This document shows, one piece after another, positions 3,690-42,190 of a stretch of DNA of 42,190 nt. Made by a program: the position numbers and the translations under genes. The stretch lies in the NCBI GenBank assembly GCA_964403205.1, contig CAYOER010000005.1, positions 1 to 42,190 on the forward strand, written 5' to 3'. A model generated the notes under the pieces. It was not told where the DNA came from. It saw nothing but the letters and a program-made list of their open reading frames with translations, and made no database searches. The stretch comes from an uncultured Candidatus Saccharibacteria bacterium (GTDB lineage Bacteria > Patescibacteriota > Minisyncoccia > Phycocordibacterales > PALSA-1337). How positions within the stretch are numbered: the stretch's first letter is position 1; each line of letters starts with the position of its first letter.

Positions 3690-4298
3690 TTAACGACTAT
3701 AAAATTCGAGCACAGCTCCGACATTGAATAATAGCTCACTTTCCAATGCATTTGGAATCCCATCTACAGTCATTTCTTTCTTGTCAAAGTTGAGCTTGAG
3801 CCATGGTGGTAACTTCATGCTTTTCAATCTTTCATCCAGACTGTTAAATAGTGCCTTTTTCTTGCTACCTTCTCTTATACTTATAATATCTCCAACTTTC
3901 ACTTCATATGAAGGAATAGTGACTTTGACACCATTTACTATTAGATGTCCATGGGATACCATCTGTCTAGCTGCTTGTCTAGTAGGGGCAAATCCAGATC
4001 GGAGTGCAACATTATCTAAGCGTCCTTCTAGCTTTCTAATCAATAATTCTCGAGAATTACCCTTTTTATCTATTGCTTGCTTTACGTATTTTGTAAATTG
4101 CTTCGATGTAATACCATAGCTCCATCTTGCCTTCTGTTTCTCTAGCATTCCGAGTCCATATTCGCTCTTTACACCTCCTCTTTTTTTAGAATTTTCTCTC
4201 TTTTTCTCTGCACGAATAGCGTACTTCTGAGTCTGAGTTTTCTCAAATACTGGTGCACCGAGGCGTCTTGCTATTTTGTATTTTGGTCCAATTATCAT
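3690..4298 (-). CDS. rpsD: 30S ribosomal protein S4
   Basis: LEGRLDNV and ARQMVSHGH S4 motifs. Confidence 0.98.
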   Translation of the reverse strand: MIIGPKYKIARRLGAPVFEKTQTQKYAIRAEKKRENSKKRGGVKSEYGLGMLEKQKARWSYGITSKQFTKYVKQAIDKKGNSRELLIRKLEGRLDNVALRSGFAPTRQAARQMVSHGHLIVNGVKVTIPSYEVKVGDIISIREGSKKKALFNSLDERLKSMKLPPWLKLNFDKKEMTVDGIPNALESELLFNVGAVLEFYSR

Positions 4299-6958: not shown

Positions 6959-6970
6959 ATATTATGATAA

Positions 6971-8116
6971 TTATACCATACCATCTAGAGCAAAAGCATA
7001 TATACCGATAAGAGAATTCTTCTCTATAGTGCCTTCGAAGACTACAGCTTTATCTATAAATGAATCATCAAAAGAGAAAACCTCTAGATGCTCTTTTTCT
7101 ATTATATTTTTAAAAATATTGAAATGTCTATGTATAGATAGATATATAGAATATGGTGTTGTTTTCTTGCCCTCCATATCTGTAATTGATTTCAAAAAAG
7201 ATACTTTCCACTCCTCTAGAATAGGTGTCAATAATTTTGACACTTTCTGTTCTTCATTTTTATTTAATTTACCATCTTCATACATAGATATAGAAGAATC
7301 TGCAATCTTTATTGTATTTTTCATAGATTCAGCAAGCATTCTAACCATAGTGGTTCTGCCAAATGGAAAAGAAGATAGATGTGAGCTAAAATTATTTCTT
7401 ATAATTACTATATCTGTCAATTCACCATGCACATGAACTGATATATATTCATTTTTATTATCAATAAGTAAACGTAGAGCAGTGTATCTTAATAATAATG
7501 CAGAATGATAATGGAATTTCTTAACCTTTATAAAATTCTTTATCATTTTATCTAACTTTTTCAGAACTTTATCTGAGCTAAATGTAGTTGCAAAAGATAT
7601 TTCAAGGAATTTTGCTTTCTTACCTTTATATTCAGAGACAGAATATCCATTCAATTTTACATCGAAAATATTTTCTTCTATGAAAGCAATATCGTATTCA
7701 TATTCTTTACTAAGATTACCTTCTTTGAATTTTGCAGATAATTCTTTCCTTTCTTTATTTATAATATCTAAAATAGTAGAGTCTTTTATTTCTGTCTCTG
7801 TATCGTATTCAATCTTTACTGTTTTTGACTGAGGTATAACCCATGGTGAAGATAATATATAGTGCACAGACTTTATGTCTTTTATACCATCTCTTACCAT
7901 TCTATTACATATATCAGAAACAGATTTTACCATAAGCTCAGTGATCCTATTACCATCTACTTTTGATTCGAAAGATATACTCTGATTAGAAGTATAGATA
8001 ACATGTGGTTTATCTGTATTGGAAAATGAAATAAGAGCTACGCGGACTAGATCACTCTGAATATCGATTATAAGAGAAATGCCACTCTCTGTATTTTTAG
8101 TATTCAAAGAAAACAT
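6971..8116 (-). CDS. Degenerate actin-fold (FtsA/PilM-like) protein
   Basis: N-terminal IIDIQSDLVR (phosphate-1-like), VHVHGELTDI (phosphate-2-like) and SFPFG. Confidence 0.5.
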   Translation of the reverse strand: MFSLNTKNTESGISLIIDIQSDLVRVALISFSNTDKPHVIYTSNQSISFESKVDGNRITELMVKSVSDICNRMVRDGIKDIKSVHYILSSPWVIPQSKTVKIEYDTETEIKDSTILDIINKERKELSAKFKEGNLSKEYEYDIAFIEENIFDVKLNGYSVSEYKGKKAKFLEISFATTFSSDKVLKKLDKMIKNFIKVKKFHYHSALLLRYTALRLLIDNKNEYISVHVHGELTDIVIIRNNFSSHLSSFPFGRTTMVRMLAESMKNTIKIADSSISMYEDGKLNKNEEQKVSKLLTPILEEWKVSFLKSITDMEGKKTTPYSIYLSIHRHFNIFKNIIEKEHLEVFSFDDSFIDKAVVFEGTIEKNSLIGIYAFALDGMV

Positions 8117-23601: not shown

Positions 23602-25047
23602 TCATAACATACTTTCATTTCCTTTTCTGTATATAGTCAATGGTACTTTATCCCAAGTATTAACAATTGAAGTGATGAATTTCCAAGCAGATATTACCTC
23701 ATCCGTACTGGTAAATAGTGTCTGATCTCCCACAATAGCATCATATAATACCCTCTCATATGCATCTGGTAGGATCTGTAATGATTGTGAATCTGCATAT
23801 TTAAACTTCAGAGTTTTCGGCTCTACTGCCATGTCGAATCCCGGTGTCTTTACGAAAAATCTAACCTTTATTCCCTCATCTGGCTGTATTCGGAAAGTCA
23901 ATATATTCTGATCATCAGGATCTGCATCATATTTCATATTTTCTTCTTTATTTCTTCCTTTTGTTTCTATGGCTTTTATTTTATTTTTAATTTCTGAATT
24001 TTTGAAATATATATCTATTTCACTTTTTGATTCCTTCAATGCCTTACCACTCTCTATATAGAAAGGCACATCCCTCCATCGTGGAGAATCTATATATGTT
24101 TCTATACGAAAATATGTTTCTGTTTGACTATTCCTATTTACACCTTTTTCATTTGCATATCCTTCATATTGACCACGTACTATATCTGGCATGGACTTTT
24201 TATTATAAACAAATGGTCTGAGACGATTTATTATCTTTGCTCTTTCTTTACGTATTGAGTCCGCATCAAATTCTTCCGGTGGTTCCATAGCGATCAGTGC
24301 GAGCATCTGCAATATATGATTCTGTCCTACATCTTTCAGAGCTCCTAGTCCATCATAGAAGTTCCCCCGGCCTTCTATTCCATTTTTTTCTAAAAGCTTT
24401 ATATGTATTGCTGATATATGATCTCTATTCCAAAGTGGTTCGAAAAGTGCATTGGCAAAACGAAATGTCAGTATATTCTGTAATGCTTCCTTTGCAAGGT
24501 AATGATCTATACGGAATATCTGCTTCTCATCAAAAAGCTGTGCGAGTTTCTTATCCAATGCTCTAGCTGTATCTATATCATGGCCAAATGGCTTCTCCAC
24601 TAGCACACGTGTCCATCCTAGACCATCGCTACATGCTGTTGTCAGTCCAGATTTTGCCAAATATTCTAAAATAGTCTCATAGAAATGCGGCGCTACTGCA
24701 AGATGAAAAAGTTTATTGGAACATTGGCCGAAACTATCGTCTATGAGACTGAGTCGCAATGATAGTGATGCATAAGATGGTGGAGAATCAAAAAATCCCT
24801 GTTCATAGTACATATGATCAAGGAAATGCTTTATATCCTCTTCATGATACTGTCCTGGCTTTACCTTCATATTATCACGTATGTATTGTCGGAATTCCTC
24901 ACGGGTAAAAGATCGCCTAGAAAATCCTACTATGGAGAATTTCTGTGGTAGACGTTTATTGACATATAGATTAAGTAGCGAAGGAAGGAGTTTCCTACCT
25001 GCAAGGTCGCCAGTAATACCAAATATGATGAATACGGTAGGAGTCAT
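23602..25047 (-). CDS. zwf: Glucose-6-phosphate 1-dehydrogenase
   Basis: IFGITGDLA.RKL, VEKPFG, RIDHYLAKE and DVGQNHILQ. Confidence 0.96.
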   Translation of the reverse strand: MTPTVFIIFGITGDLAGRKLLPSLLNLYVNKRLPQKFSIVGFSRRSFTREEFRQYIRDNMKVKPGQYHEEDIKHFLDHMYYEQGFFDSPPSYASLSLRLSLIDDSFGQCSNKLFHLAVAPHFYETILEYLAKSGLTTACSDGLGWTRVLVEKPFGHDIDTARALDKKLAQLFDEKQIFRIDHYLAKEALQNILTFRFANALFEPLWNRDHISAIHIKLLEKNGIEGRGNFYDGLGALKDVGQNHILQMLALIAMEPPEEFDADSIRKERAKIINRLRPFVYNKKSMPDIVRGQYEGYANEKGVNRNSQTETYFRIETYIDSPRWRDVPFYIESGKALKESKSEIDIYFKNSEIKNKIKAIETKGRNKEENMKYDADPDDQNILTFRIQPDEGIKVRFFVKTPGFDMAVEPKTLKFKYADSQSLQILPDAYERVLYDAIVGDQTLFTSTDEVISAWKFITSIVNTWDKVPLTIYRKGNESML

Positions 25048-25085
25048 AGCAGGAATATATTAGCACACTTTTATACTATTTTGTA

Positions 25086-25394
25086 TTAGAGACTTAGTAT
25101 GAGTGGATATGCGAAGAAACTCAAAGCAAAATACACAATACAACGTACCAATGTCCATGCTTTCTGATTCTTTGACAAAGCACCATTGTTATACAATGCC
25201 AACACTATGTTCTTGAAAAGTAAAATAGGAAGTACAAAATATGATACGAATACCCACTGTTGTAGCCATAATTGCAATAGATCCTGTGGTATCTTCCCAG
25301 AGAAAACGATTATTATTGATACAATCAAATAAAAGAACTCTATTATCCCCAATACCCCTAGAACACTTTTTGTTTTTTGATTTTGTAGATTCAT
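25086..25394 (-). CDS. Hypothetical membrane protein (about 3 TM)
   Basis: 102-aa hydrophobic ORF. Confidence 0.6.
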   Translation of the reverse strand: MNLQNQKTKSVLGVLGIIEFFYLIVSIIIVFSGKIPQDLLQLWLQQWVFVSYFVLPILLFKNIVLALYNNGALSKNQKAWTLVRCIVYFALSFFAYPLILSL

Positions 25395-25467
25395 ATTATA
25401 TTTTATTAATAATTATTTATACCCAATATTCTAACATAGTATGTAAGAAAAGTAATCAACAGCCTCC

Positions 25468-25497
25468 CTATCTCCCCATATTATATAACTGTTGTAC
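25468..25497 (-). repeat. Orphan copy of the LamG gene 3' end (encodes VQQLYNMGR*)
   Basis: CTCCCCATATTATATAACTGTTGTAC at 25472-25497 is identical to 26035-26060. Confidence 0.9.
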
Positions 25498-25740
25498 TTA
25501 TTGAGTGTAAAATAGTCTCTTTATTTTTTCTTCATCAAAGCATCTCTCTAAAGATCTAATAATTGATTTGAACGTTCCTCTATCTAGTTCACTGTGCAAT
25601 GGAACAGTTATATAATGAGAAGTAGTAGTAACTTTTTTAACAAGCCTTACATGACTTCCTATCTGTCTTATTTCTGAAAAACCTTCAGAGAGAAGGATTC
25701 TTACAAGTTCTTTACCAGAGATTCTACGGAGTTTAGGCAT
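25498..25740 (-). CDS. hicA: HicA family toxin
   Basis: MPKL..ISGKELVRIL..GF..RQIGSH..TVPLH..L.RGT..SI. Confidence 0.92.
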   Translation of the reverse strand: MPKLRRISGKELVRILLSEGFSEIRQIGSHVRLVKKVTTTSHYITVPLHSELDRGTFKSIIRSLERCFDEEKIKRLFYTQ

Positions 25741-25957
25741 GAGCTATTCGAGAGAAATCCATATTCATCATTATAGGAGGAAAACCATCGGCCTTATTTC
25801 CTAGAATATCGCCCAGACTAACTTCTACTGCTTCCTTTATATTAGAAAGAAGATCTTCGAAGGACTTACCTTGCGTGTATATAGATACATCATCTGCTGA
25901 TGCTATATAGAAACCATCTTCTCCTTTTGAGATTTGGAAAGTTATGATTTTATTCAT
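25733..25957 (-). CDS. HicB-like antitoxin (short, no DNA-binding domain)
   Basis: EDGFYIA...YTQGKSFEDLLSNIKEAV; overlaps the hicA start by 8 nt. Confidence 0.85.
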   Translation of the reverse strand: MNKIITFQISKGEDGFYIASADDVSIYTQGKSFEDLLSNIKEAVEVSLGDILGNKADGFPPIMMNMDFSRIAHA

Positions 25958-26030
25958 TATATTTGTATATTAGCATAGTAGAATATACAAAATCAAGTTA
26001 ATAAAATTACTTTCAACTTTATAACTTCTT

Positions 26031-28121
26031 TTACCTCCCCATATTATATAACTGTTGTACCTCGCTTGCCGATAGCGCGCGGTTGTAGATGCGAACGTCG
26101 TCGAGGGAGCCACCGAATAAACCAGAGGTAGGACCATACCCTATGCCAATATATCTAAATATTATAGCCGTTGTAGATAGACTTGTAATTTGTTCAGAAT
26201 AAACACCATCTTTATATAAAGACAATGTGCCTTGACCATCAGACATTATGGTAATATATTGCCATTTATTTATAACGCTCACTGATGAATTATTTGAAAA
26301 AGATCTGACAGTATAATTAGGAGCACCTTCTCTATATACAAATCTTTTAAACCCGGAGTCTGCCACACCTAAATATTTAAACGTTCCTCCTAGCCCGGTA
26401 AAGGAATTATTTCCACTAACTACACCATTCCAATTCATCCAAGTAGAAAATGTCCATGGTACACTATCACCAAAAGTGATATCACTACTAATGCGTAAAT
26501 AATCATCCCCCCCATCAAACCTCCCCGCCTGCCCCACTTTTCCCTTCGTATAGAAAGTAGAAGAAGCGATATTTATGGGATTACCATGATTACCCTGACC
26601 ACTTTTGTCTCGTATTACTCCATTTACTACATCTTTACCATCGAAGGTCCAATATCCTACTAAACCGCAAGATAATCCTGAAGTACAGTTTGTATTCTTT
26701 ACTGGTTGGGAAGCAGAGACCTTGGAACCGGCGGTACTATTGTATAGTTGAGATACCTCACTTGCTGATAGCGCGCGGTTGTAGATGCGGATGTCGTCGA
26801 TAAGGCCATTAAATGTTCTATCAGTAGTATTTGAATTCCCTATTATCATATTCGTCGTACCCACTTCTGGTGTACCACTATTTTGATTAGCAGAGCCACT
26901 TAATTGACCATTAATATAAAGATTTGCAATCCCAGAACCATTTCTCGTAACAGTCACAAATACCCATTGATTATATGGTAACGAACCGGCTGCTGATTGT
27001 GCATTATTAGTTCCGCCATTACTAGATAAAACAATTATATTTGCTCCTAGACGAAATATTGTCTTGTTATTATCAAAGATACGCCCAGCAACCTGACCAA
27101 TACTTTTTGCATATATCCATGCAGAATATGTACCTGCGGTAGCACCAATTAAATCACTTCCTGTTTTTATTTTGTCATCCCCCCCATCAAACCTCCCAGC
27201 CTGCCCGATCTTCCCCTTCGTATAGAAAGTAGAAGTAGCGATATTTATAGGGTTACCATGATTACCATTTCCACTTTTATCTCTGATTACTCCATTTACT
27301 ACATCTTTACCATCGAAGGTCCAGTAACCCACTAGTCCGCAGGATAGTCCTGATGTACAGTTTCTGTTTTTTACTGGTTGGGAGGCAGAGACCTTGGAAC
27401 CGGCGGTACTATTGTATAGTTGGGATACCTCACTTGCCGATAGCGCGCGGTTGTAGATGCGAACGTCGTCGATCATACCAGAAGAAGGTCCTGAACCACT
27501 ACCTGATGCACCAATAAAAGTTTGAGTTGCTCCTGATGCTGGTGTACCACAGTTCTGGTCGGCAGTACCTGATAAAACACCATTTATATAAATATTGGAG
27601 ACACCACTACCATCTCTTGTAACAAGGACAAATACTTGTCTATTTAAAGGTATTGAATTAGTAGCACTTCTAACATTAGAGGTACAGGAGAATATTAATC
27701 TATTACTAGTTGAATCAACTGAAAATGTTGTATTACCACTTGTATTAGTAGTAATAGTACCACTTTGTTTCTTAGGATTTATCCAAGCTGATACAGAAAG
27801 AGTACCAGTACCTAACATATCAGAATTAATCATAACTCTGTCATCCACCCCATCAAACCTCCCCGCTTGCCCTACCTTACCAATATCATAAAAAGTAGAA
27901 GTAGCGATATTTATGGCATTACCATGATTCCCATTACCACTCTTATCCCTAATCACCCCATTCACCACATCTTTCCCGTCAAATGTCCACCAGCCGACAA
28001 GGCCAGAATTCATAGTAAGGGCATTACTAGGAACACCGATACTAGAAGCCAGGGCATGATCAGGATACAGAAAAAAAGCAGAGAAAATAATAGACAATAA
28101 AATAATCTTTGCAGATTTCAT
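26031..28121 (-). CDS. Secreted protein with three LamG-like (ConA lectin jelly-roll) domains
   Basis: Signal peptide; three copies of GLVG[WY]WTFDG...DD[VI]RIYNRALS. Confidence 0.9.
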   Translation of the reverse strand: MKSAKIILLSIIFSAFFLYPDHALASSIGVPSNALTMNSGLVGWWTFDGKDVVNGVIRDKSGNGNHGNAINIATSTFYDIGKVGQAGRFDGVDDRVMINSDMLGTGTLSVSAWINPKKQSGTITTNTSGNTTFSVDSTSNRLIFSCTSNVRSATNSIPLNRQVFVLVTRDGSGVSNIYINGVLSGTADQNCGTPASGATQTFIGASGSGSGPSSGMIDDVRIYNRALSASEVSQLYNSTAGSKVSASQPVKNRNCTSGLSCGLVGYWTFDGKDVVNGVIRDKSGNGNHGNPINIATSTFYTKGKIGQAGRFDGGDDKIKTGSDLIGATAGTYSAWIYAKSIGQVAGRIFDNNKTIFRLGANIIVLSSNGGTNNAQSAAGSLPYNQWVFVTVTRNGSGIANLYINGQLSGSANQNSGTPEVGTTNMIIGNSNTTDRTFNGLIDDIRIYNRALSASEVSQLYNSTAGSKVSASQPVKNTNCTSGLSCGLVGYWTFDGKDVVNGVIRDKSGQGNHGNPINIASSTFYTKGKVGQAGRFDGGDDYLRISSDITFGDSVPWTFSTWMNWNGVVSGNNSFTGLGGTFKYLGVADSGFKRFVYREGAPNYTVRSFSNNSSVSVINKWQYITIMSDGQGTLSLYKDGVYSEQITSLSTTAIIFRYIGIGYGPTSGLFGGSLDDVRIYNRALSASEVQQLYNMGR

Positions 28122-28256
28122 GGGTAAATTATAGCATGAAAATATAATAAAATAACTTTATAACTTTTTACTTTATAACTTCTTTTACCTCCCCATATTA
28201 TATAACTGCCGTACCTCTGTTGCCGATAGCGCGCGGTTGTAGATGCGGATGTCGTC
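28085..28256. repeat. Duplicated gene junction (gene end, ACTTT tandem, promoter, next start); second copy at about 34432-34610
   Basis: Near-identical TAGACAATAAAATAATCTTT..GATTTCAT..ATTATAGCATGAAAATATAATAAAATAACTTT.. at both sites. Confidence 0.85.
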
Positions 28257-30389
28257 CATGAGACCATTAGAAGTACGACTTCCAGCAGTATTTCCACCAA
28301 TAATAGCTGCACTTGCACTATCATCACTACGTGTCCCAATAGGCGTAATAGCTGTTGGTAATTGATAAAATATTCCATCAATATAAAGAGAGGGGACATT
28401 GGTAGTATCATCAGAATTGTAACTCAAAACAATATGGTGCCATTTATTGAATGAAATAGGCGGAGTTGTGCCGTTATATTTCCATTTACCCGTATTACCC
28501 GAAAATGTAACATTAAATTCAAACCCTGTTTCTCCTACGAAATGACTAGAAAAAGCAAAGAGAACCCAATTCTTACCAATCCAAAAACCTGCTTCACCTT
28601 CTCCTGCAGATTTCGGATTTACCCAATATGATATCGTACCACCACCATCCCAAATATTTTGTATAGAAGATGTATTGGAAATAGTAATATAATCATCCCT
28701 CCCATCAAACTTCAACCCCTGCCCGACCTTCCCTGCCTTCACCGCTGTAGATGTAGAAGTGAAACCGATCATAGCACCATTATTACCATTACCACTTTTA
28801 TCTTTTACATTCTGTATCATATCCGGCCCATCGAATGTCCACCAGCCGACAAGACCTTGATTGAGATTGCTGGGGCCAGGAAAAGAGATATTTTGTTTAC
28901 CAGATTTACTACTATCATAGACTTTCTTTATTTCAGTGGCAGACAGAGCCCTATTATATACTCTTATATCATCTAGATATCCATACCAATTCCCATTACC
29001 TTGATCATCACGCGCACCGAGTACAGAAGCTCCACCGGGAGAGTCAGTATTGGTACTTGTTGCAATAGAAAGTCCATCTTTATATAGATCTACATTATTA
29101 CCATCAAAGACATAGCAAACATGTACCCATGTATTATTGCTAAATACTGCAGAACTAGACTGGGAACCTTTCGCTGTTGCTCCAGAACGATAAGAGACAA
29201 ATAATTTACCATCATTTACTATACTCCCCATACGTATACCATTACTAGCATCAATATAGAAATTCAAGAATGTCTGATTCCATCCTGCAGGAGAAACTGT
29301 CAGATCTTTATTATATGCCCATGCACAGGATGAACTTGGATTACTAACTGTTGTTATTGGATTAGAAATTAGACCGATAGAAGTGACATTACCGTCAAAG
29401 GTAAGTGCCTGACCTACCTTACCTTGTCTCACTACAGTAGAAGTCGCTCCGAAATATTGGAAATATCCATGCTTGCCATTACCACTGGTGTCTCTGACAT
29501 TCGGTGTTAGATTTGCCCCATCGAAGGTCCAATATGCTACTAGATTATTATTTATACTATCAAAACTTGATGGGGTATTTATTTTGCTACCTTTGGTGGC
29601 ATTATAAAGTTGAGCAATTTCTTGGGCACCTAGTGCGCGGTTGTAGATGCGGATGTCGTCTATTGTTGCATTAGCGAATGCTGAAGCGTCATTATTAGTC
29701 CCAATCTTAAGAGGTGTACTGATGTTCGTATTAAGTGCTCCTCCTGTCCCATTAGTAGTAGCTTTCTGTACGCCATTAATATAGACATACGAGGCAGGGT
29801 CGTTATACATAACAACTACATGTGTCCATTGACCTAGTGGTATTGGGCAAGTAGCGGAGTTACAATTAATATCTAGCTGACTACCCCCAGTTCCAGAACC
29901 TCCATATCTCCAAATAGTTGCTATATCAAAAAAACTGCTACCGTATACACTGAATAATCTCCCTGTGCTTCCACTGTTACGATAAATAAAGTGACCCGTC
30001 TTATTATTATTTTTAACCCAAAAAGCTATGGTAGCCCCACTTGCACCTTCTAGGGAATCAAGGGCACTCGAATCAGGCGCATCCACATAATCATTACTAC
30101 CATCAAACTTTAGTGCCTGCCCGACCTTACCCGTAACCACCGCACTAGAAGTAGAAGTGAAACCAATCATAGAACCATGATTACCATTACCACTTTTATC
30201 TTTTACATTACTTATCATATCCGGCCCATCGAATGTCCACCAGCCGACTAGACCTTGATTGAGATTATTGGGACCAGGAAGTGAGGAGTTTATACCACTA
30301 GCAGAAAGGGCGATGGAAGGTAATAGGAGTATTGCTATAAAGACAATACTAGATTGTATTAAATATTTCAAAATAAAATTATTCCCCAT
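28185..30389 (-). CDS. Secreted protein with three LamG-like domains
   Basis: Signal peptide; three copies of WTFDG...DDIR[IV]YNRAL. Confidence 0.9.
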   Translation of the reverse strand: MGNNFILKYLIQSSIVFIAILLLPSIALSASGINSSLPGPNNLNQGLVGWWTFDGPDMISNVKDKSGNGNHGSMIGFTSTSSAVVTGKVGQALKFDGSNDYVDAPDSSALDSLEGASGATIAFWVKNNNKTGHFIYRNSGSTGRLFSVYGSSFFDIATIWRYGGSGTGGSQLDINCNSATCPIPLGQWTHVVVMYNDPASYVYINGVQKATTNGTGGALNTNISTPLKIGTNNDASAFANATIDDIRIYNRALGAQEIAQLYNATKGSKINTPSSFDSINNNLVAYWTFDGANLTPNVRDTSGNGKHGYFQYFGATSTVVRQGKVGQALTFDGNVTSIGLISNPITTVSNPSSSCAWAYNKDLTVSPAGWNQTFLNFYIDASNGIRMGSIVNDGKLFVSYRSGATAKGSQSSSAVFSNNTWVHVCYVFDGNNVDLYKDGLSIATSTNTDSPGGASVLGARDDQGNGNWYGYLDDIRVYNRALSATEIKKVYDSSKSGKQNISFPGPSNLNQGLVGWWTFDGPDMIQNVKDKSGNGNNGAMIGFTSTSTAVKAGKVGQGLKFDGRDDYITISNTSSIQNIWDGGGTISYWVNPKSAGEGEAGFWIGKNWVLFAFSSHFVGETGFEFNVTFSGNTGKWKYNGTTPPISFNKWHHIVLSYNSDDTTNVPSLYIDGIFYQLPTAITPIGTRSDDSASAAIIGGNTAGSRTSNGLMDDIRIYNRALSATEVRQLYNMGR

Positions 30390-32284: not shown

Positions 32285-34468
32285 TTACCTCCCCTGATTA
32301 TATAACTGCTTCACCTCGCTTGCCGACAGCGCGCGGTTGTAGATGCGGACGTCGTCGATGGTGCCATCTTGATTCTGTGTGCTTACAGAAATAGCTCCTA
32401 TTCTTATATTATATGAACCAGAGACAGGAGTCCCGGAATTTTGATTGGCTGTACCAACTAAAATACCATTTATATAAAAATTAGCTTGATTACTATTATT
32501 TCTTGTAACAGTTACGTGATACCAAGTATTAAGTAATAATGAATTTGTCCCAGAATGAGATGTTGTAGTAAAATTATTACTAGAAAATTCTAATCGCTTA
32601 TTAACACCGACAGTACGAAAAATTGTACTCCCATTAGTTAAAATCTGTCCAATAGAAACAAAAGATTTTAAATATATCCATGAAGAAATGGTCACATCAG
32701 TTGTACTAATTACAGATGATGATGTTTGAACATAGTCATCCCCCCCATCAAACCTCCCCGCCTGACCGATCTTACCCGGCACATAGAAAGTAGAAGTAGA
32801 GATACTGATTGCATTACCATGATTACCATTTCCACTTTTATCTAGCACTACGCCATTGTTCATATCTTTCCCATCGAAAGTCCAATAACCGACTAGTCCA
32901 CAGGAGAGTCCTGTGGTGCAGGAGGTTGGGCCGACCTTGGGAGAGGAGGCTTGCTTGGTTGCTGCACCCATATTGTAAAGGTAGGTGATTTCACTTTGGG
33001 AGAGGGCACGCATATAAAAACGTACATCATCTATTTTACCATCATGATAACTAGAACCACATCCATTGATAGCACCTATACAAGGTGAAAATGAACTATC
33101 TAATACAATATCTGATATAGCACCAGAATTAGATGAACTTATAACACCATTAATATATAAAAATACATTTGTACCCTGCCTTACAGCAATAACATGCGTC
33201 CATTTCCCAGTCGTTAAAGTGTTCGTTGGAGTTGTAGCTGCTACTGTCGCAATTCCGTAGTCTGTTATAGTAAAACTTAACCTATTCAGTGTACTTACAA
33301 TTATACTCGCAGAATCTCCCGAAGCAACTTTGTCATCATATAGAGCAGAACCAAATGCTACTCTATCATAAAACATCCATCCTGCTATAGTAAAATCTGA
33401 AGTACCTGGTGATAACTTAGGACTACTAGACGGTAATTTCACACCATCGTTTACCCCGTCAAAATTTACCGCCTGCCCCAGCTTACCTGGCGCATAGAAA
33501 GTAGAAGAAGCGATATTTATAGGGTTCCCATTATTCCCATTTCCACTTTTATCTAGCACTACACCATTACGCATATCCTTCCCATCGAATGTCCAATAAC
33601 CGACTAGGCCACAAGATAGTCCTGAAGTGCAGGAGGTTGGGCCGACCTTGGGAGAGGAGGCTTGCTTGGTAGCTGCACCCATATTGTAAAGGTAGGTGAT
33701 TTCTGATTGAGTGAGGATGCGGTTATAGATGCGAACATCATCTAGACCAGCATCTAGGTAATCCGATATTCCATTTGCACTACCAAGCATTAAATTACCG
33801 GATTCATCGGAATTTGCTGTTGCTCCATCTGTAGCAGATAAATTTGTCTGTAAAACTCCATTTCTATAGACCACAACACCAGTAGATAAAGTCATAGAAC
33901 CATCCCAAGTAAGGACTATATGTTGCCAAACATTATTGACTAATAAACTATTATAATTTTTAGAGGAGTCTGTGCCACCCTCTTTTGCGAAGCGCAAGCG
34001 TGCTGGATTTGTAGTAGAATTCTTTTGTATTTGCCAATATCCAGTACCATTTGAAGCTGCCCCTTTCTGGATTATGCTATTAATAGTATTCGTATCTGGT
34101 CTAATCCAAAAAGCCACAGTCATACCTCCTCCACCTTGACTCTGTATATCATCAAGTGATGAACCTGTGCCTGCATTGATATAATCATTACTACCGTCAA
34201 ATTTTAGTCCTTGTCCTATTTTCCCAGGTTTATAGAAAGTAGAAGTAGAGATACTGATTGCATTACCATGATTACCATTTCCACTTTTATCTAGCACTAC
34301 GCCATTGTTCATATCTTTCCCGTCAAAGGTCCAATAACCGACTAGGCCAGAACTGAGAGAAAGAAGATTGGGAGAAACACCGATCTTGGAAGCAGAGGCG
34401 GTGTGGGGGGAAAAGAAAAAAGTGAAAAAGAAAATAGTAGACAATAAAATAATCTTTACAGATTTCAT
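32285..34468 (-). CDS. Secreted protein with three LamG-like domains
   Basis: Signal peptide; three copies of GLVGYWTFDGKDM...DDVR. Confidence 0.9.
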   Translation of the reverse strand: MKSVKIILLSTIFFFTFFFSPHTASASKIGVSPNLLSLSSGLVGYWTFDGKDMNNGVVLDKSGNGNHGNAISISTSTFYKPGKIGQGLKFDGSNDYINAGTGSSLDDIQSQGGGGMTVAFWIRPDTNTINSIIQKGAASNGTGYWQIQKNSTTNPARLRFAKEGGTDSSKNYNSLLVNNVWQHIVLTWDGSMTLSTGVVVYRNGVLQTNLSATDGATANSDESGNLMLGSANGISDYLDAGLDDVRIYNRILTQSEITYLYNMGAATKQASSPKVGPTSCTSGLSCGLVGYWTFDGKDMRNGVVLDKSGNGNNGNPINIASSTFYAPGKLGQAVNFDGVNDGVKLPSSSPKLSPGTSDFTIAGWMFYDRVAFGSALYDDKVASGDSASIIVSTLNRLSFTITDYGIATVAATTPTNTLTTGKWTHVIAVRQGTNVFLYINGVISSSNSGAISDIVLDSSFSPCIGAINGCGSSYHDGKIDDVRFYMRALSQSEITYLYNMGAATKQASSPKVGPTSCTTGLSCGLVGYWTFDGKDMNNGVVLDKSGNGNHGNAISISTSTFYVPGKIGQAGRFDGGDDYVQTSSSVISTTDVTISSWIYLKSFVSIGQILTNGSTIFRTVGVNKRLEFSSNNFTTTSHSGTNSLLLNTWYHVTVTRNNSNQANFYINGILVGTANQNSGTPVSGSYNIRIGAISVSTQNQDGTIDDVRIYNRALSASEVKQLYNQGR

Positions 34469-34538
34469 AACTAGATTATAGCATGAAAATATAATAAAAT
34501 AACTTTCAACTTTATAACTTTTTACTTTATAACTTCCC

Positions 34539-36788
34539 CTACCTCCCCATATTATATAACTGCTTCACTTCACTTGCCGATAGCGCGCGGTTGTAGATGC
34601 GAACGTCGTCGAGGGAGCCGTTAAAATTTCGAGAATTGGCACTTACATTAGCGCCGATATGTGCTGATGAAGTAGTATCTGACACTATGTTACCAACACC
34701 ATCAGTTGGACTTGTGTATGCTGTTTCAACTCCATTAATATAAAATTTTATTCCTGTAGCATCTGCAGTACCATCCCATGTCATTGTAAAATAAGTCCAT
34801 TTATTTAAAGGTATAGCATTCACAGTTGATACAACTCTACTTAGATTAGTTGCGCCATCATAATCACGATAAAACCATGGGGTTAGTATTCCAGAGGAAC
34901 CAGCGCTATCTATTGATAAAAACCAACCATTCAATCCAAAACCAGTACTTTTCTCCATTATATATCCAGTATTATTAGACCCAGAACTTTTTGGGTATAC
35001 CCAAGAACTTATGGTAATAGCAGGCAAATCATTGAGACTACTAGGTGTACCAGCATTCACATAATCATTCGTTCCATCAAACCTCCCCCCCTGCCCCAAC
35101 TTCCCCTGAGTATAGAAAGTAGAAGTAGAAATGTTAATTAAATTTCCATTATTACCATTTCCACTTTTATCTAAAATTACACCATTACGAATATCTTGAT
35201 TATTGAAGGTCCAGTAGCCGACTAAGCCTGAGTCTAGTGAATTGACATTAGGTCTTAATGCTTGAGTTTCTTGGAGTTTAGTACCTGCGCCTTGCATATA
35301 TAGTTGCTTGATTTCTGAAGTAGACAGGGCGCGGTTGTAGATGCGGACGTCGTCGATAGAACCGTCAAATACTCTTGAACCACCAGCTACATTATTACCG
35401 ATGATCATATTCCTAGCGACATCAGTTACACGACTTGCATCTCCATCTGTCTGTGTAGAGTAGGTTTGTTCTACACCATCCTTATAAATATGAACATTTG
35501 TTGCAGTAGTGCTACCATCCCATGTTACAACTAAATGAACCCATTTATTAAAATTAGAAGTTGAAAATGTAGCAGAAGAAGTACGAACAACAAGATTTGT
35601 CACATCATAATCCACATTAAATTCTATTGTTCCACTTAAAGTTGAGCGGATATAAAATTCCCAGCCATTCGCATCGAAACCAGTTGATTTTTCTACTATA
35701 CCGCCAAGACTAGTCCCTCCAAATGATTTTGCATTTACCCATGCTGATATAGACATAGCTGACAAATTATTGAGACTACTAGGTGTACCAGCATTCACAT
35801 AATCATTCGTTCCATCAAACCTCCCTGCCTGCCCCAACTTCCCCTGAGTATAGAAAGTAGAAGAAGCGATACCAATTGGATTACCATGATTACCATTTCC
35901 ACTTTTATCTAGTATTACACCATTACGGATATCTTGATTATTGAATGTCCAGTAGCCGACTAGGCCTGAGTCTAGTGAATTGACATTAGGTCTTAATGCT
36001 TGAGTTTCTTGGAGTTTAGTACCTGCACCTTGCATGTAGAGTTGTTTGACTTCGGAAGCAGATAGAGCGCGGTTGTAGATGCGGACGTCGTCAATAATAC
36101 CATTAAACCTAGTATCATTATTTCCACGCTCTCCAATATGAAGGTCTCTGCCATTACTTACATACTGTGCCAATGGAATACCTGTAGTATTTTGTCCAAT
36201 AGATACACCATTTTTATAAATCTCTAAAGATACAGACGGAGTAAAAACTGCTACATAATGATTCCAAATATCATTATTATGTAAATCATTTACCGTAAGA
36301 GAAATGGTTTCGGTACTGCTAGTAGCGATGGTGAATGCTACATCATTACTATTGTTAATTCCAAAACTATATCCTCTAGTGGAACTCCCCCCTTGTGTTC
36401 CCAAACTACCAGTCGTAGCACTTGAACCTTTTCCTTTCAACCAAACTGAAATAGTCATGGCTCCTGTCGGCTTGAAAGAAGGATCGTTAGAAACATTCAC
36501 AACATCATCCCCCCCATCAAACTTCCCCCCTTGCCCCAGCTTTCCCTGAGTATAGAAAGTAGAAGAAGCGATATTTATTGCATTACCATGATTACCATTA
36601 CCACTTTTATCTCTAATTACACCATTTACTACATCATTGCCATCGAAACTCCAATACCCTACTAGACCATTCGTAAGAGACATAACATTTGGTGATACGC
36701 CGATAGTCGTGCCGGCGGAGGCGGTATGGGGAAAGGAGAAAAGGCTAATAAAAAATATAAATATTATTAAAGTAAGGTTTTTATTCAT
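34539..36788 (-). CDS. Secreted protein with three LamG-like domains
   Basis: Signal peptide; three copies of GLVGYW...DDVRIYNRALS. Confidence 0.9.
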   Translation of the reverse strand: MNKNLTLIIFIFFISLFSFPHTASAGTTIGVSPNVMSLTNGLVGYWSFDGNDVVNGVIRDKSGNGNHGNAINIASSTFYTQGKLGQGGKFDGGDDVVNVSNDPSFKPTGAMTISVWLKGKGSSATTGSLGTQGGSSTRGYSFGINNSNDVAFTIATSSTETISLTVNDLHNNDIWNHYVAVFTPSVSLEIYKNGVSIGQNTTGIPLAQYVSNGRDLHIGERGNNDTRFNGIIDDVRIYNRALSASEVKQLYMQGAGTKLQETQALRPNVNSLDSGLVGYWTFNNQDIRNGVILDKSGNGNHGNPIGIASSTFYTQGKLGQAGRFDGTNDYVNAGTPSSLNNLSAMSISAWVNAKSFGGTSLGGIVEKSTGFDANGWEFYIRSTLSGTIEFNVDYDVTNLVVRTSSATFSTSNFNKWVHLVVTWDGSTTATNVHIYKDGVEQTYSTQTDGDASRVTDVARNMIIGNNVAGGSRVFDGSIDDVRIYNRALSTSEIKQLYMQGAGTKLQETQALRPNVNSLDSGLVGYWTFNNQDIRNGVILDKSGNGNNGNLINISTSTFYTQGKLGQGGRFDGTNDYVNAGTPSSLNDLPAITISSWVYPKSSGSNNTGYIMEKSTGFGLNGWFLSIDSAGSSGILTPWFYRDYDGATNLSRVVSTVNAIPLNKWTYFTMTWDGTADATGIKFYINGVETAYTSPTDGVGNIVSDTTSSAHIGANVSANSRNFNGSLDDVRIYNRALSASEVKQLYNMGR

Positions 36789-36797
36789 TTAATAAAA

Positions 36798-37226
36798 TTA
36801 AATATTTTTAGATTTCAAATATATTTTGATACAATCTACATACTTTTCATATAATGGTACAAACTCTTTTGCTGAATTATAAAAAATAAAATTATCTTCA
36901 TCAAAATCGTATTCATGTATTAAAACATTTCTAAGATTAGAACTTTTTATGAATTTTGGCAATAAGTCTTCTTCTAAGACTTTTAATGATGCCATTCTTT
37001 TGAAAGATTCTCTATATGTATCAGGTGTTTCTGCTCCCATCTCCGCAATTATATGAGTATTTATATCGCTAGCGATTTCTACAATCAATTGGAAATTCCT
37101 TTCTGCAGAGCGGATATTAGTAAATATTTTTTTAAATTCAGAAAAAGGCAATACTAAAAGTTGATTTAATTCAATCAATAATACCTTCATTTGTTCTAGC
37201 TTTTTTAGTATCAGATCATGCGACAT
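36798..37226 (-). CDS. HEPN/DUF86 (HepT-like) ribonuclease toxin
   Basis: AERNFQL.VE...DI..H and the R-X4-H motif in RNVLIHEY. Confidence 0.9.
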   Translation of the reverse strand: MSHDLILKKLEQMKVLLIELNQLLVLPFSEFKKIFTNIRSAERNFQLIVEIASDINTHIIAEMGAETPDTYRESFKRMASLKVLEEDLLPKFIKSSNLRNVLIHEYDFDEDNFIFYNSAKEFVPLYEKYVDCIKIYLKSKNI

Positions 37227-37569
37227 AATTTTCTAATATTACACGCTCACGCATACGACGGAATTTTGCAGTATCCTGATATTCCTTAAAGGATCTTACC
37301 TTGAATCTAATAAAATCATATACATCACCTTCTATCAATTTACCTTTCTTTGCAACTTCAAATTTCAATATTGGCGATGCAGTAGAGAGATCAACAAGAT
37401 CGATTTTATCTTCATTGATATTAAACTTTTTTGATAAAAAATGAGATAAATCTGTACGTGAAGCAAGGGTTAATGGATTATAAGAAAAAACTCCAAAATC
37501 AAAATCTGAAGTAGATATTGCCCTACCAGAAATCTGAGAACCAAATGCTATTATAATCGGTTTTTTCAT
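37216..37569 (-). CDS. Minimal nucleotidyltransferase (MntA-like) antitoxin
   Basis: FGSQISGRAISTSDFD (GS-X10-DXD) and IDLVDL; overlaps the HEPN gene; start could be 37584 or 37605. Confidence 0.88.
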   Translation of the reverse strand: MKKPIIIAFGSQISGRAISTSDFDFGVFSYNPLTLASRTDLSHFLSKKFNINEDKIDLVDLSTASPILKFEVAKKGKLIEGDVYDFIRFKVRSFKEYQDTAKFRRMRERVILENYVA

Positions 37570-38237: not shown

Positions 38238-41200
38238 TTAGGGTGTCGGTGCAGACTCAGGTGCCGGTGCAGGTGCAGGAGCAGGAGCTGGTTCTGGGGT
38301 AGGAGCTGGTACTGGCTCTACTGGAACTGGCTCAATAACAGGTGCCGGTACTGGATCAGCAACGGGCTCTACAACAGGTGTTGATTCTGGAGCTGGTTCT
38401 ACTAGAGCTGGAGTGGAATCCACAGGTGCTGGAATAGGATCTACGGGCGCTGATACAGGAGTGGAAGTAGCTGGAGTAGCTGGAGTGGATGTAGCTACAG
38501 GATCTGAAACTGGTATTATAACTTGTGCAGTCTCAGGTACTATAGCGGGTGCTACGGCAGGAGCTGATGCAGGAGTGGATGTAGAGGATGTAGTAGATGA
38601 TGCACTGACTCCACCAGCACTTATTAGCAAGCTCTTCAATTGCTCTTTATTTATACATACATCATCTACACAGAGCTTCTCTTCTATATGCAATTCTTTT
38701 ACAAATATTCCCTTTATACTAGTCATAGCAGATGATAGGAAATCCATAAATGAACTGAATATTTTACTTAATATAGGTGTAGATGAAGCGATAGCATCAG
38801 CAGTAGTAGAGGCAATAGAATCCAATATTGTTGTTGAAGCGAATAGATTCAATGTATTCTCATTTATAAGATCAATAGTAGTTGAAGAAAGATTATTTAT
38901 TCTATCATTTAGTCCTACTATAGCTAGATTAGTATTCTTCATTGAAGCTGTCAATTCTCCCAATGATGCTTCTGTACTATTCCTCGATGTGAATAGCAAT
39001 TCTGCTGTAGATGAAGCTAGAATATCGACATATTCAGAAAGCGAATTTATATCTTTACCGAAACATTGATTACCCTGATAACATACATCGCCAGCTAGGG
39101 AAATATTACCCTTCTCATCAATAGTCATCACATCCTCACTTTTTTGATTTCTCAATAATAGTCCTTGTGTAGAGCTTGCACTGAGCGGAGCCTCAGTAAA
39201 GGTGAAATTGTTTGCAAAGATCAAGTCACCAGCATAGGAATTCGTAGCGCGAAATGTACCATTTACATATAGATTACCATTAATTGTAGATGTTGCATTA
39301 TTTGAATCTGTAGTTGAGGCTGTGAATATACCATTATTTAGTATTTTGAATAATGTACTTGAAGCACTATTGACTACTTCGAATGTACCTTCTGTACCAG
39401 TACCATTACCGAATATTGTAAGCTTCGATGATGGTGGAGTACTACTACCGATAGAGATTCTAGGGTAATCATTCATAAGATTTCCATTACCAGCAGAGAG
39501 ACCATAGACCATGATAGTTGTACTACCATTGAGTGATGCAGTGTAACCTTGTGGTGTTCCTTCAGGAGCACTTTCAAGTAATAGATCTGTCCATGTGACC
39601 ATACCGGCATCTGTATCAAATTCCATATTTCCTGTTGTTAATGAATCTATAGAAGTGATACCTGTTGAGAAGTCATAGACTAATGAGCCATTGCCAACAT
39701 TTAACCCTCCCGCAAAAGTAGAAGTAGCGGTTGTAGATGTAGCGTGGAAGTATTCTGCTACTACTGGGCCGACTACAGATAGCTTTGCATATGGGGATGT
39801 GGTACCGATACCTACATTACCTATATTATCTATATGAATACGAGTGGCATTAGCAGTTTGAAAGGCCATATATTCATTAACACCAGAACCTGAACCAGAT
39901 ATTCTAGATGATCCTGCATTTCCAAATTGATAACCACTACCGGATGACACACGAACATAACCATTAACATCTAGAGCTACGGCTGGATCCGCTGTCCCTA
40001 TCCCCACATTCCCACCATTCGTAACAATAAAGTTTGTAGCTGTAGAAGAACCAATTGCAAATGCTGGACCAGTTATACCATTTGGATTAATTGAAAGTTG
40101 TGCCCATGGAGTGGTGGAACCTACACCCAAATTACCACCATTTGCCATACGGAAACGCTCTGTTCCAGATGTAAAGAATTTTATATTTCCTGCACTTGTA
40201 TAGTAATTTATATCATTACGTGAAGTTCCGACACGATCAATTGCCTCAATAATAACTCCATTATATGCACCATTTGAACTTCCTGAAATTGTGAAGCTAG
40301 CATTATTATCTACAACCTCAAATTTTGCACCTGGATTAGTTGTCCCCACTCCCACATTCCCATTCTTATCAACAATAAACTGTGTACCCGTAGATGAACC
40401 TACAGCAAATGCAGGTGAACCAGCTACACCAGATACAGCTAGCTGTGCCCATGGAGTGGTGGAACCTACTCCAACATTCCCATTTTCCTGTACCTGGAAT
40501 ACAGTAGTAGAAGCATTATTGACAAGAGCTAATAGATTAGCAGTACCAGTTCCCTCACCCCATACAGTGAGTTTAGAATAAGGGGTCGATGTACCGATAG
40601 CTACTCCTATGCTTCCTGGTTTTGTATATCCATTACCATCCGTCTGACCATATAGAGTAAGTGTAGTACTACCCATAAGATCGAAGCTATATGATTCTAC
40701 TGTGCCATCATCTGGAGTATCTGTAATAGGTAGATCAAGTGCTGTAACTATACCCGCATCAGTATCTAGATTAAGATTTCCAGTCTGTACGGAACCGATA
40801 GATGTGATACCTGTATATGAATCATAAACAAGTCCCCCATTTCCTACATCAAGCCCTCCTGCAAATGTAGACGTAGCAGTAGTAGATGTAGCATGGAAGT
40901 ATTCTGCTACTACTGGACCGACTACAGATAGTTTTGCATATGGGGATGTGGTGCCGATACCTACATTACCTTCTGCATTCCATATACCACTACCTGGGAA
41001 GAAGGCAGCACTGGAGACAGAGAGTGCTGTAGTTGAACCATATGTGAATGCTAGATTAGCTGTAGTATTGTTCCATGTGAATGCAGATGAGTCTATGAGG
41101 AAGCCACCTGTACTTGCAAATGGTACTCTACCAGAAGTTAGAGATGAAATCGATATACCAGTAGTAGATGCATATGGGAAAGTGGAAGCTGTAGAGGATG

Positions 41201-42190
41201 TTGATATGAAATATGATGAACGGACATAGTCATCAAATACTCCAATACCCGCTACTCCGAGTAGAGCGTATGGTGATGTTGTACCAATACCGACATTCCC
41301 TGCATCTTGTATTACAAATCTTGTAGTACTAGCTACATCTGATACTGCAAATGCATAACTTGTAGCACTAGTAGTAGTACCTGCTACAGATAGTGTAGCC
41401 CATGGGGATGTGGTACCGATACCTAGACGGAGATTCTTTGCATTACCTGATCCATCTGCTTCTCCATATACTGTGAATACTGGGAGACCGCCGATATTGG
41501 CGGTGTAGGCTTCTGGAGTACCAGCTATAGCATTACTATCAAGTGGCAGATCTGTCCAAGAAACTATTCCAGCATTTGTTTCAAAGTTTAATGATCCAGT
41601 CTGAAGTCCAGTTATAGATGTTATACCAGTATAGTAGTCATAAACAAGTCCCCCATTTCCTACATCAAGCCCTCCAGCTAGAGTAGACGTAGCAGTAGTA
41701 GATGTAGCATGGAAGTATTCTGCTACTACTGGACCGACTACAGATAGTTTTGCATATGGGGATGTGGTGCCGATACCTACATTACCTTCTGCATTCCATA
41801 TACCACTACCTGGGAAGAAGGCAGAGCTAGAGACAGTAAGTGCTGTAGTAGATGCATATGGGAATGTAGATGCTGTAGAAGATGTAGCTGTGAAGTATGA
41901 TGCTGTTACATTATTCCCTGCCCAGATATCAGATGAAGCGTATATAGATGAAGAAGCAAATAGATTATTCTGTATCCATAGTGCTGTAGTGGTAGAGTTG
42001 GTATTTATTCCATAGTTAGTAGCTGGTGTCCAAGCGAAAGATACAGATGATGGCCATGATGTTCTACAGTCAGTGGTGATACAGATAGTGGTAGCGGAGA
42101 GAGCTGTGGTGGAGGCGTAGGGGAAGGTAGAAGCAGTAGAGGATGTTGATATGAAATATGATGAACGGACATAGTCATCAAATACTCCAA
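38238..42190 (-). CDS. Giant repetitive surface/fibre-like protein, partial (over 1300 aa; start lies beyond the window)
   Basis: The frame of ORF 38238..40676 stays open without a stop to 42190 (read codon by codon); GNVGIGTTSP repeats, ICITTDCRTSWP motif, Pro/Ala-rich tail. Confidence 0.88.
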   Translation of the reverse strand, partial: GVFDDYVRSSYFISTSSTASTFPYASTTALSATTICITTDCRTSWPSSVSFAWTPATNYGINTNSTTTALWIQNNLFASSSIYASSDIWAGNNVTASYFTATSSTASTFPYASTTALTVSSSAFFPGSGIWNAEGNVGIGTTSPYAKLSVVGPVVAEYFHATSTTATSTLAGGLDVGNGGLVYDYYTGITSITGLQTGSLNFETNAGIVSWTDLPLDSNAIAGTPEAYTANIGGLPVFTVYGEADGSGNAKNLRLGIGTTSPWATLSVAGTTTSATSYAFAVSDVASTTRFVIQDAGNVGIGTTSPYALLGVAGIGVFDDYVRSSYFISTSSTASTFPYASTTGISISSLTSGRVPFASTGGFLIDSSAFTWNNTTANLAFTYGSTTALSVSSAAFFPGSGIWNAEGNVGIGTTSPYAKLSVVGPVVAEYFHATSTTATSTFAGGLDVGNGGLVYDSYTGITSIGSVQTGNLNLDTDAGIVTALDLPITDTPDDGTVESYSFDLMGSTTLTLYGQTDGNGYTKPGSIGVAIGTSTPYSKLTVWGEGTGTANLLALVNNASTTVFQVQENGNVGVGSTTPWAQLAVSGVAGSPAFAVGSSTGTQFIVDKNGNVGVGTTNPGAKFEVVDNNASFTISGSSNGAYNGVIIEAIDRVGTSRNDINYYTSAGNIKFFTSGTERFRMANGGNLGVGSTTPWAQLSINPNGITGPAFAIGSSTATNFIVTNGGNVGIGTADPAVALDVNGYVRVSSGSGYQFGNAGSSRISGSGSGVNEYMAFQTANATRIHIDNIGNVGIGTTSPYAKLSVVGPVVAEYFHATSTTATSTFAGGLNVGNGSLVYDFSTGITSIDSLTTGNMEFDTDAGMVTWTDLLLESAPEGTPQGYTASLNGSTTIMVYGLSAGNGNLMNDYPRISIGSSTPPSSKLTIFGNGTGTEGTFEVVNSASSTLFKILNNGIFTASTTDSNNATSTINGNLYVNGTFRATNSYAGDLIFANNFTFTEAPLSASSTQGLLLRNQKSEDVMTIDEKGNISLAGDVCYQGNQCFGKDINSLSEYVDILASSTAELLFTSRNSTEASLGELTASMKNTNLAIVGLNDRINNLSSTTIDLINENTLNLFASTTILDSIASTTADAIASSTPILSKIFSSFMDFLSSAMTSIKGIFVKELHIEEKLCVDDVCINKEQLKSLLISAGGVSASSTTSSTSTPASAPAVAPAIVPETAQVIIPVSDPVATSTPATPATSTPVSAPVDPIPAPVDSTPALVEPAPESTPVVEPVADPVPAPVIEPVPVEPVPAPTPEPAPAPAPAPAPESAPTP
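40822..41008. repeat. Internal 187-bp direct repeat in the giant gene (copy at 41638-41824; partial copy about 39707-39821)
   Basis: Near-identical DNA encoding FFPGSGIWNAEGNVGIGTTSPYAKLSVVGPVVAEYFHATSTTATST. Confidence 0.88.

Follow-up and report, generated by a model that had tools for sequence, protein, structure and literature searches.

Why should a small toxin–antitoxin (TA) pair stand between two perfect copies of the end of its neighbouring gene? The question is raised by a 42,190-nucleotide stretch of DNA, hereafter the window, from an uncultured, ultra-small Candidatus Saccharibacteria bacterium of groundwater (contig CAYOER010000005.1 of assembly GCA_964403205.1), in which a hicBA module lies behind LamG696, the last gene of an array of LamG-domain genes. 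The window is the whole of one contig of a 729-kb genome with 35% GC, and the assembly (G000) is 93.7% complete; records with the same LamG tail are titled Candidatus Taylorbacteria or Parcubacteria, among others. The best reading of the locus, to which we give moderate confidence, is homology-driven displacement of the gene tail, as in rhs arrays: incoming DNA would have recombined into the conserved 3′ end of a resident LamG gene and pushed the old end downstream as an orphan.

The 26-mer at 25472–25497 is identical to that at 26035–26060, 563 bp from start to start, with no further identity (0 bases) at either end. Read along the minus strand, LamG696 is followed by a hicB-like gene (74 amino acids, aa), hicA (80 aa) and the distal repeat copy, which lies directly behind the hicA stop codon and reads VQQLYNMGR up to a stop of its own at 25468–25470. 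Perfect direct repeats flanking hicBA, and an orphan tail abutting the hicA stop, had been described in the initial annotation, and sequence comparison bears out both. A chance repeat is ruled out, since the expectation for such a 26-mer pair in the window is 2e-6 and the longest exact repeat in 30 shuffles was 20. The same annotation had matched the repeat to the 3′ end of LamG696, which is correct, while missing that the other full LamG genes of the genome have near-copies of it at their ends: the four of them (three in the window, one on contig C19) carry the tail with 2–5 mismatches. By the list of open reading frames (ORFs) and domain search, the 563 bp between the repeat starts contain hicBA and nothing else, in particular no integrase.

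The pair has the parts of a HicBA TA system, namely a HicA-domain toxin (PF07927) and an adjacent HicB-type partner; the 74-aa protein has no match in Pfam or NCBIfam, and its label comes from a match to PDB entry 2yzt (TTHA1756), which we take to be HicB-like. Homologues of the 74-aa protein are encoded in front of hicA-like genes. Like type II HicBA systems, the module consists of two small overlapping genes, one for a HicA-domain toxin, with an inverted repeat in the leader; unlike them, it has a short HicB-like partner without a family match, and its toxicity is predicted only. By analogy with type II TA autoregulation, the inverted repeat is a candidate operator over the hicB promoter. 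The orphan tail contains a –10-like hexamer and might act as a promoter for the following gene, which has a promoter-like motif of its own.

Relatives show what the site looks like without the cassette. In G018 (contig C2) a full LamG gene ends at the position of the orphan, with the spacer, the 102-aa gene and zwf after it as in the window, and locus L101 has the same layout with a tail closer to the orphan; in both, LamG734 has its orthologue (44% and 64% identity) in the last LamG gene, which stands behind a pilin-LamG gene. The site is filled differently in L076/L077: behind the LamG734 orthologue come an MNT-HEPN pair (90.5% identical to the pair of the window), a two-domain LamG gene and PemK, and then the resident spacer without an orphan. 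At L076 the junction falls beyond the stop, and the PemK leader there has about 20 bases in common with the hicB leader. Both the empty site and the other cargo at the same repeat, which the initial annotation had proposed to look for, thus exist in relatives. Across the 26-mer, the LamG734 orthologues of L101 and L076/L077 have tails that differ from the orphan at one position. The orphan is of the resident type (EVQQ), while LamG734 of this genome now ends in another variant (EVRQ). These empty and differently filled sites, together with the match to the LamG734-orthologue tails, lead us to read the orphan as the putative displaced end of the resident LamG gene, with LamG696 and hicBA added in front of it. 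In three relatives LamG696 is missing from the interval between the LamG734 orthologue and the 102-aa gene, and is for that reason probably an inserted unit itself. In a survey of the orthologous site the 102-aa gene was found in 4 of 80 family members: two in a transketolase region without a LamG tail, one at a contig edge, and one that is the empty site.

Is the orphan an isolated case? Pattern scans gave matches in 8 of 45 genomes of the genus and 24 of 401 of the order (from these 24, 20 regions were taken), 17 stretches in species genomes, 38 in metagenomes and 1 in viral contigs. In this genome no orphan was found besides that at 25468..25497. A search for other genes followed by an orphan QLYNMGR-type fragment, as the initial annotation had suggested, yielded 30 more in 19 related loci, up to three per locus, giving 31 orphan tails in all; the loci correspond to about 17 sources after merging those of one record or identical sequence. 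Left out of this count are 11 duplicate loci, a frameshifted LamG gene (L029) and three matches treated as due to chance (L028, L038, L103). Some orphans stand in rows: L099 has PemK, orphan, MNT-HEPN, orphan, HicBA, orphan; L079 has GIY-YIG, a YafQ pair and MNT-HEPN; and further rows occur in L097, L044 and L093. An ORF lies upstream of 29 orphans: in 19 cases it belongs to a family that we assign to the TA group (HicA/B, HepT, MNT, YafQ, PemK, PIN, Gp49/HTH, Fic), in six it is a RhuM, GIY-YIG, NYN, DUF2283, methyltransferase or EamA gene, and in four it has no match. The units measure 0.4–1.5 kb with tight ends: in 12 of the 29 the profile match begins at most 20 nt from the cargo stop, and inserted palindromes inflate several of the larger gaps. 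The orphans retain about 30 to 100 bases of the tail, their left ends vary, and in a comparison with 65 full tails just 4 of 22 other orphans come nearest to the tail that precedes them, the window's orphan tying with one other. Variable length and mismatch to the upstream tail are what would be expected of recombination between similar tails, not of a fixed target duplication. That the LamG end serves as a recurrent insertion point is supported by these comparisons. The initial annotation had proposed an att-like site, with integrative elements as precedent, or else the scar of a deleted LamG gene. A fixed att core does not fit orphans of such different lengths or the relative that has cargo and no orphan, and an integrative element does not fit an assembly without a detected tyrosine recombinase and a 563-bp unit that has none.

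Several of the orphan tails are interrupted by short palindromic elements like repetitive extragenic palindromes (REP), inserted repeatedly between the Y and N codons of the box (L044:2737–2876 and 1260–1390; L097:3400–3535 and 4135–4271; L041; L033; L024:7640–7756), and L097 and L044 each have a row in which one and the same palindrome is inserted in two orphans. Y1 transposase genes, similar to REP-associated tyrosine transposases (RAYT), and palindromes are often found right behind LamG tails (L068, L031, L032, L049, L070, L021); the label is confirmed by PF01797 for L068 and given by sequence likeness at the other loci. Locus L024 also contains, at 274–1122 and 2111–2303, a reverse-transcriptase-like gene (a weak TIGR04416 match) with a duplicated 5′ piece, an MNT-HEPN-like pair between the copies and a partial LamG box on the other strand.

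Looking from the side of the cargo, and independently of the tail sequence, HicB homologues were found in 19 of 250 other genomes of the order. A single mobile unit of hicBA plus LamG tail common to two hosts was sought and not found, either at 20 homologue loci or in 40 relatives, where there was no DNA match to hicBA beyond one 49-bp piece. At two of the 20 loci the pair lies between the 3′ end of a host gene and an orphan copy of that end; the bracketing tails are those of a histidine kinase (134 bp, 93%) and of an ABC-F gene (44 bp, 93–98%, three copies). The same duplicated-tail test was positive at none of 28 control loci and for one of 759 ORFs of this genome, the one finding being the hicBA of the window. 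Since the homologues lack LamG tails and two of them lie between other duplicated tails, the cargo does not depend on LamG, and tail displacement extends beyond the LamG genes.

Other duplications were noted along the way. At L110:2560–2651 the third ABC-F tail copy is fused to an apparent truncated hicA fragment. This genome has a second tail duplication, outside LamG: a 165-aa hydrolase-like gene is followed by 20 bp that repeat the 3′ end of a 197-aa gene (G000:C1:7715 and 8255). Duplicated promoter-plus-start segments bracket small genes at G000:C7:26338/28245, C17:11505/12962, C3:55464/56972, C2:52612/54315 and C10:22437/24313; they include a second hicBA-like pair on C7 and form a 5′-end counterpart of the LamG-tail case. 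An A/T-rich intergenic repeat of at least 34 bp occurs in 15 copies on G000:C1, C2, C3, C4, C8, C10, C12, C13 and C21 and brackets, in pairs, variable segments of 1.3–5.8 kb.

The conserved box at the end of the LamG genes has properties of its own. It uses codons rare in this genome (GAC 0.14, CGC 0.06, AAC 0.11), and its G+C fraction at third codon positions (GC3) is 0.68 in terminal (n = 50) and 0.64 in internal boxes (n = 67) versus 0.30 in the variable cores, with which it shows no correlation (r = –0.13); another conserved motif taken for comparison has a GC3 of 0.57 and r = 0.37. The box GC3 is consistent with a shared, often recombining module, and we infer that the box may have been homogenised by frequent recombination. 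The core pair of an integron attC site (RYYYAAC...GTTRRRY) was found near none of the 31 orphans, a weak test given that 0.135 is expected at random. The full tail folds no better than shuffles (z = 0.44/0.54); the orphan junction does fold (z = –2.6/–2.8) into a short stem with a 24-nt loop and without attC cores.

The proposed course of events is as follows. The last ~85 bases of the LamG genes are nearly the sole DNA common to the whole family. DNA carrying a LamG tail, a promoter and a small cargo, probably taken up through the ComEC/DprA competence system and offered as a circular molecule or as a linear one flanked by tail homology, would recombine into the resident tail by means of host RecA; ComEC, RecA and DprA are all encoded in this assembly. 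The LamG protein would keep an equivalent C-terminus, the cargo would come to lie after it, and the old tail would be shifted downstream to become an orphan able to receive the next insertion. Two units would have landed behind LamG734 here, LamG696 and then hicBA, and TA cargo would persist since its loss by tail–tail recombination would be penalised, as it is for TA cassettes of chromosomal integrons (PMC13108822). The direction of insertion, the enzyme, uptake by transformation, the circular or linear donor, the order of the two events and the persistence of TA genes are all parts that we infer. The first tail behind the stop of a cargo may have arisen by deletion of a downstream LamG body, or by an illegitimate joint that was later trimmed.

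Several observations weigh against this reading. No LamG tail lies within 1.5 kb of hicB homologues at any of the 20 loci (one overlapping locus left out), and the closest hicBA homologue, at 72% aa identity, shares only the stretch from promoter to stop. Assembled contigs from four sequencing runs gave no skip of the 563 bp, no empty allele and no circle joint among 15/25 joints listed, contigs being prone to drop rare variants. Use of the same codons in the box is modestly raised (0.50 versus 0.43 expected). The genome has one large serine recombinase, on another contig (G000:C2), and all five array-bearing relatives encode a tyrosine recombinase; the scanned ones resemble Xer or phage enzymes, and their genes are on other contigs. 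An identity of 26–30 bp is short for RecA, and the window junction therefore needs either a longer donor arm that was later trimmed or a microhomology joint, while the perfect identity of the 26-mer requires a close-kin donor or later conversion. It should be noted, too, that the orphan profile was built from 65 full tails and that the search pattern fixed the right end of the tail, so that both the sample and the picture of tail lengths are biased.

Among the other explanations, a deletion scar is one that we regard as rather unlikely. It supposes that hicBA entered a spacer of a longer LamG array by another route and that the LamG gene behind it then lost all but its last 30 bp, which would make the orphans leftovers of whole genes. 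Cargo directly before a complete LamG gene is indeed a natural state (MNT-HEPN before LamG749; L024, L076), some orphans stand behind ordinary genes (EamA, methyltransferase) in regions whose retrieved part has no full LamG gene before them, most orphans are unlike the tail that precedes them, and a short microhomology is plausible at the hicA junction. Random deletions, though, should scatter, whereas those 12 of 29 matches lie tight behind the cargo stop and many orphans retain the conserved box and nothing more; three such deletions would be required for a row of three orphans; the palindrome shared within a row in L097 and L044 points to copying; and the histidine-kinase and ABC-F cases have the same layout, with tails 93–98% identical. 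The two accounts are compatible in that a deletion could make the first unit of cargo plus tail, which homology would then spread. A further possibility is that such units result from mis-joined reads. Tails common to co-occurring strains could mislead an assembler, many related LamG pieces do co-occur in the runs, contigs break at the tail, and the 400-bp core in common with C19 does not have a clearly doubled depth. A contig of run X1, which may be the source, spans 24224–26045 with 0 differences and an even depth of 10.1, in X6, from another sample and study, a contig spans 24925–25578, and depth over hicBA equals that of the flanks in the assembled contigs. The hicA–orphan junction thus lies inside unbroken contigs of two studies, which rules out the misassembly at 25497 that the initial annotation had named as a danger, and the layout recurs in many other assemblies; we consider an artefact very improbable. 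Since the X1 and X6 contigs end by 26045, inside the shared tail, they establish that some LamG tail precedes hicB, and that it is the tail of LamG696 rests on the assembly.

An enzyme-driven origin comes in two forms. In one, which we hold to be improbable, the tail is an att site for a recombinase acting in trans (Xer-like or large serine), and the rows are a true analogue of integrons. The repeat is co-oriented behind each cargo and tightly spaced to its stop, the box codons are unusual, Xer-like genes occur in 5/5 relatives, and the serine recombinase is at hand at G000:C2. Set against this are a core and a length that are not fixed, the absence of attC cores and of full-tail folding described above, the same layout at unrelated gene tails, and the enzymes themselves: no tyrosine recombinase (PF00589) was found in this assembly, and those of the relatives (5 proteins, 4 of 5 genomes) score 68–135 bits on TIGR02249, for which the integron-integrase cut-off is 265. 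The other form, still less probable in our judgement, takes the units for prophages or integrative and conjugative elements that carried the LamG 3′ end and shrank to a TA module between attL and attR. Known elements do insert in gene 3′ ends, and TA modules are the parts expected to persist, but there is no integrase or other element remnant in any unit examined, the tail pattern in IMG/VR gave one stretch that is not a LamG tail, and the units are small with tight ends. A transposon or insertion sequence fits no better: no Y1 transposase (Y1_Tnp, the one transposase family searched) was found in G000, the duplications have no constant length, and most orphans differ in sequence from the tail before them.

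How does homology-driven tail displacement compare with systems already known? Its outcome has the marks of a 3′-end integrative element (a duplicated 3′ end of the target, a restored gene, an empty site in relatives). In such elements, of which e14 in E. coli icd is an example from a protein-coding gene, the target gene is likewise restored and its old 3′ end left as a fragment; here there is no integrase, the units are 0.4–1.5 kb and the crossover is not fixed. The minimal mobile elements (MMEs) of Neisseria exchange cargo by host recombination and transformation. They too have no element-encoded enzyme, and the LamG gene between rplE and rpsN on C19 fits their kind; they differ in having two different flanking genes and no duplication, while here one gene end forms both arms and multiplies. 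In rhs arrays, recombination at a conserved core through a circle has been proposed to shunt the old end downstream (Jackson et al. 2009, PMC2935791). In that account, as here, a conserved coding segment recombines, the old gene end is shunted downstream and rows of fragments of variable length result, and circles are proposed with none seen. Unlike rhs genes, which gain a new variable tip, LamG genes keep a conserved tip and an unchanged protein, what they acquire is an unrelated gene pair with its own promoter, placed behind the stop, and the homology spans about 30–100 bp; an intact gene with dissociated fragments of variable length is found, and exchange of a variable toxic tip and immunity gene is not. 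Chromosomal integrons, whose TA cassettes kill on excess excision (PMC13108822), resemble the LamG rows in their co-oriented small units, the repeat right behind the stop and the promoter-bearing TA modules. The LamG rows differ from them in that there is no integron integrase (IntI), attC hairpin or core and that the repeat is the end of a protein-coding gene. LamG-tail rows resemble both an integron array and rhs displacement in how they work, yet belong neither to integrons, nor to integrase-bearing elements, nor to rhs proper. No description of LamG-tail arrays was found in the literature searched, which lay mainly outside subscription papers and excluded supplements.

The cassette closes an array made up of four three-domain LamG genes and two pilin-LamG genes; the MNT-HEPN pair stands at the opposite end (Table 1).

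Table 1. Coordinates of the cassette, the LamG array and its flanks in the window
Feature	Position	Strand	Remarks
zwf (glucose-6-phosphate dehydrogenase), core flank	23602..25047	-	G6PD_N + G6PD_C
102-aa membrane-type gene, fixed right flank of site	25086..25394	-	between spacer and zwf in empty-site relatives as well
Resident spacer behind orphan	25395..25467	-	aligns with G018:C2 and L101; behind full LamG gene in empty-site relatives
Orphan LamG tail (VQQLYNMGR-stop)	25468..25497	-	distal repeat copy 25472-25497; read as displaced resident LamG end
hicA toxin gene, 80 aa	25498..25740	-	HicA_toxin PF07927, E 6e-14; stop adjoins orphan tail
hicB-like antitoxin gene, 74 aa	25733..25957	-	overlaps hicA start; phmmer to PDB 2yzt TTHA1756, E 1e-5
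10-bp inverted repeat with 10-nt loop, hicB leader	25962..25991	-	z -2.3; 6/200 shuffles equally good
Array spacer with short tandem repeats	25992..26030	-	common to spacers behind other LamG tails and PemK cassette leader in L076
Conserved LamG terminal box and tail (DDVRIYNRALS...QLYNMGR-stop)	26031..26118	-	proximal repeat copy 26035-26060
LamG696, three LamG domains, own promoter	26031..28121	-	Laminin_G_3 matches x3
LamG734, last resident array gene in relatives	28185..30389	-	orthologues 44-79% identical
Two pilin-LamG fusion genes, 287 and 298 aa	30412..32171	-	N_methyl + Laminin_G_3; synteny anchor
LamG727 and LamG749, further array members	32285..36788	-	same tail and spacer type
MNT-HEPN (HepT) toxin-antitoxin pair	36798..37566	-	90.5% identical copy directly behind LamG tail in L076/L077

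Upstream of the array, window positions 38238–42190 encode a repeat-rich protein of more than 1316 aa that has no Pfam match and runs off the contig end; genes similar to it precede LamG arrays in relatives. The fifth three-domain LamG gene (G000:C19:5557–7742, L127) lies between rplE and rpsN of the ribosomal-protein operon, has no orphan tail and is missing from that junction in G056, G018 and G019. The variable core of the last domain of LamG696 (window 26104–26506) is identical over ~400 bp to the middle domain of this gene (G000:C19, about 6600–7000), and the flanking boxes differ; a recent swap of domains would account for it, as would an effect of assembly or strain, the depth of the shared core being 11.9 against 6.5–11 for single-copy pieces. 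At L091:2525–2675 a tail like that of LamG734 is followed by a start like that of LamG727, an order unlike the window's that may come from rearrangement of the array or from the assembly.

That histidine-kinase and ABC-F tails show the arrangement of the hicBA cassette too suggests that genes may be captured in this way more generally. A bolder view, possible and held only tentatively, is that the LamG box is a dedicated recombination module of Patescibacteria, conserved at the DNA level, between whose copies everything, be it a lectin domain or a stop plus cargo, may be swapped. It would make an integrase-free, competence-driven platform that reshuffles host-contact adhesins and stacks defence and addiction genes, with the orphans as working arms that would spread cassettes between species. 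Patescibacteria have tiny genomes. Such reduced genomes are thought to lack most classical defence systems, TA included, and competence genes are prevalent in these bacteria (PMC12455944). Tail displacement would give them a concrete integrase-free route to gain and stack small defence genes, with a conserved gene end as the landing site. If the tail is a universal homology arm, it would also offer a neutral insertion site for genetic tools in these bacteria. Finally, the site belongs to a pilin-lectin locus that likely mediates host contact, and may tie the variation of adhesins to the turnover of defence genes.

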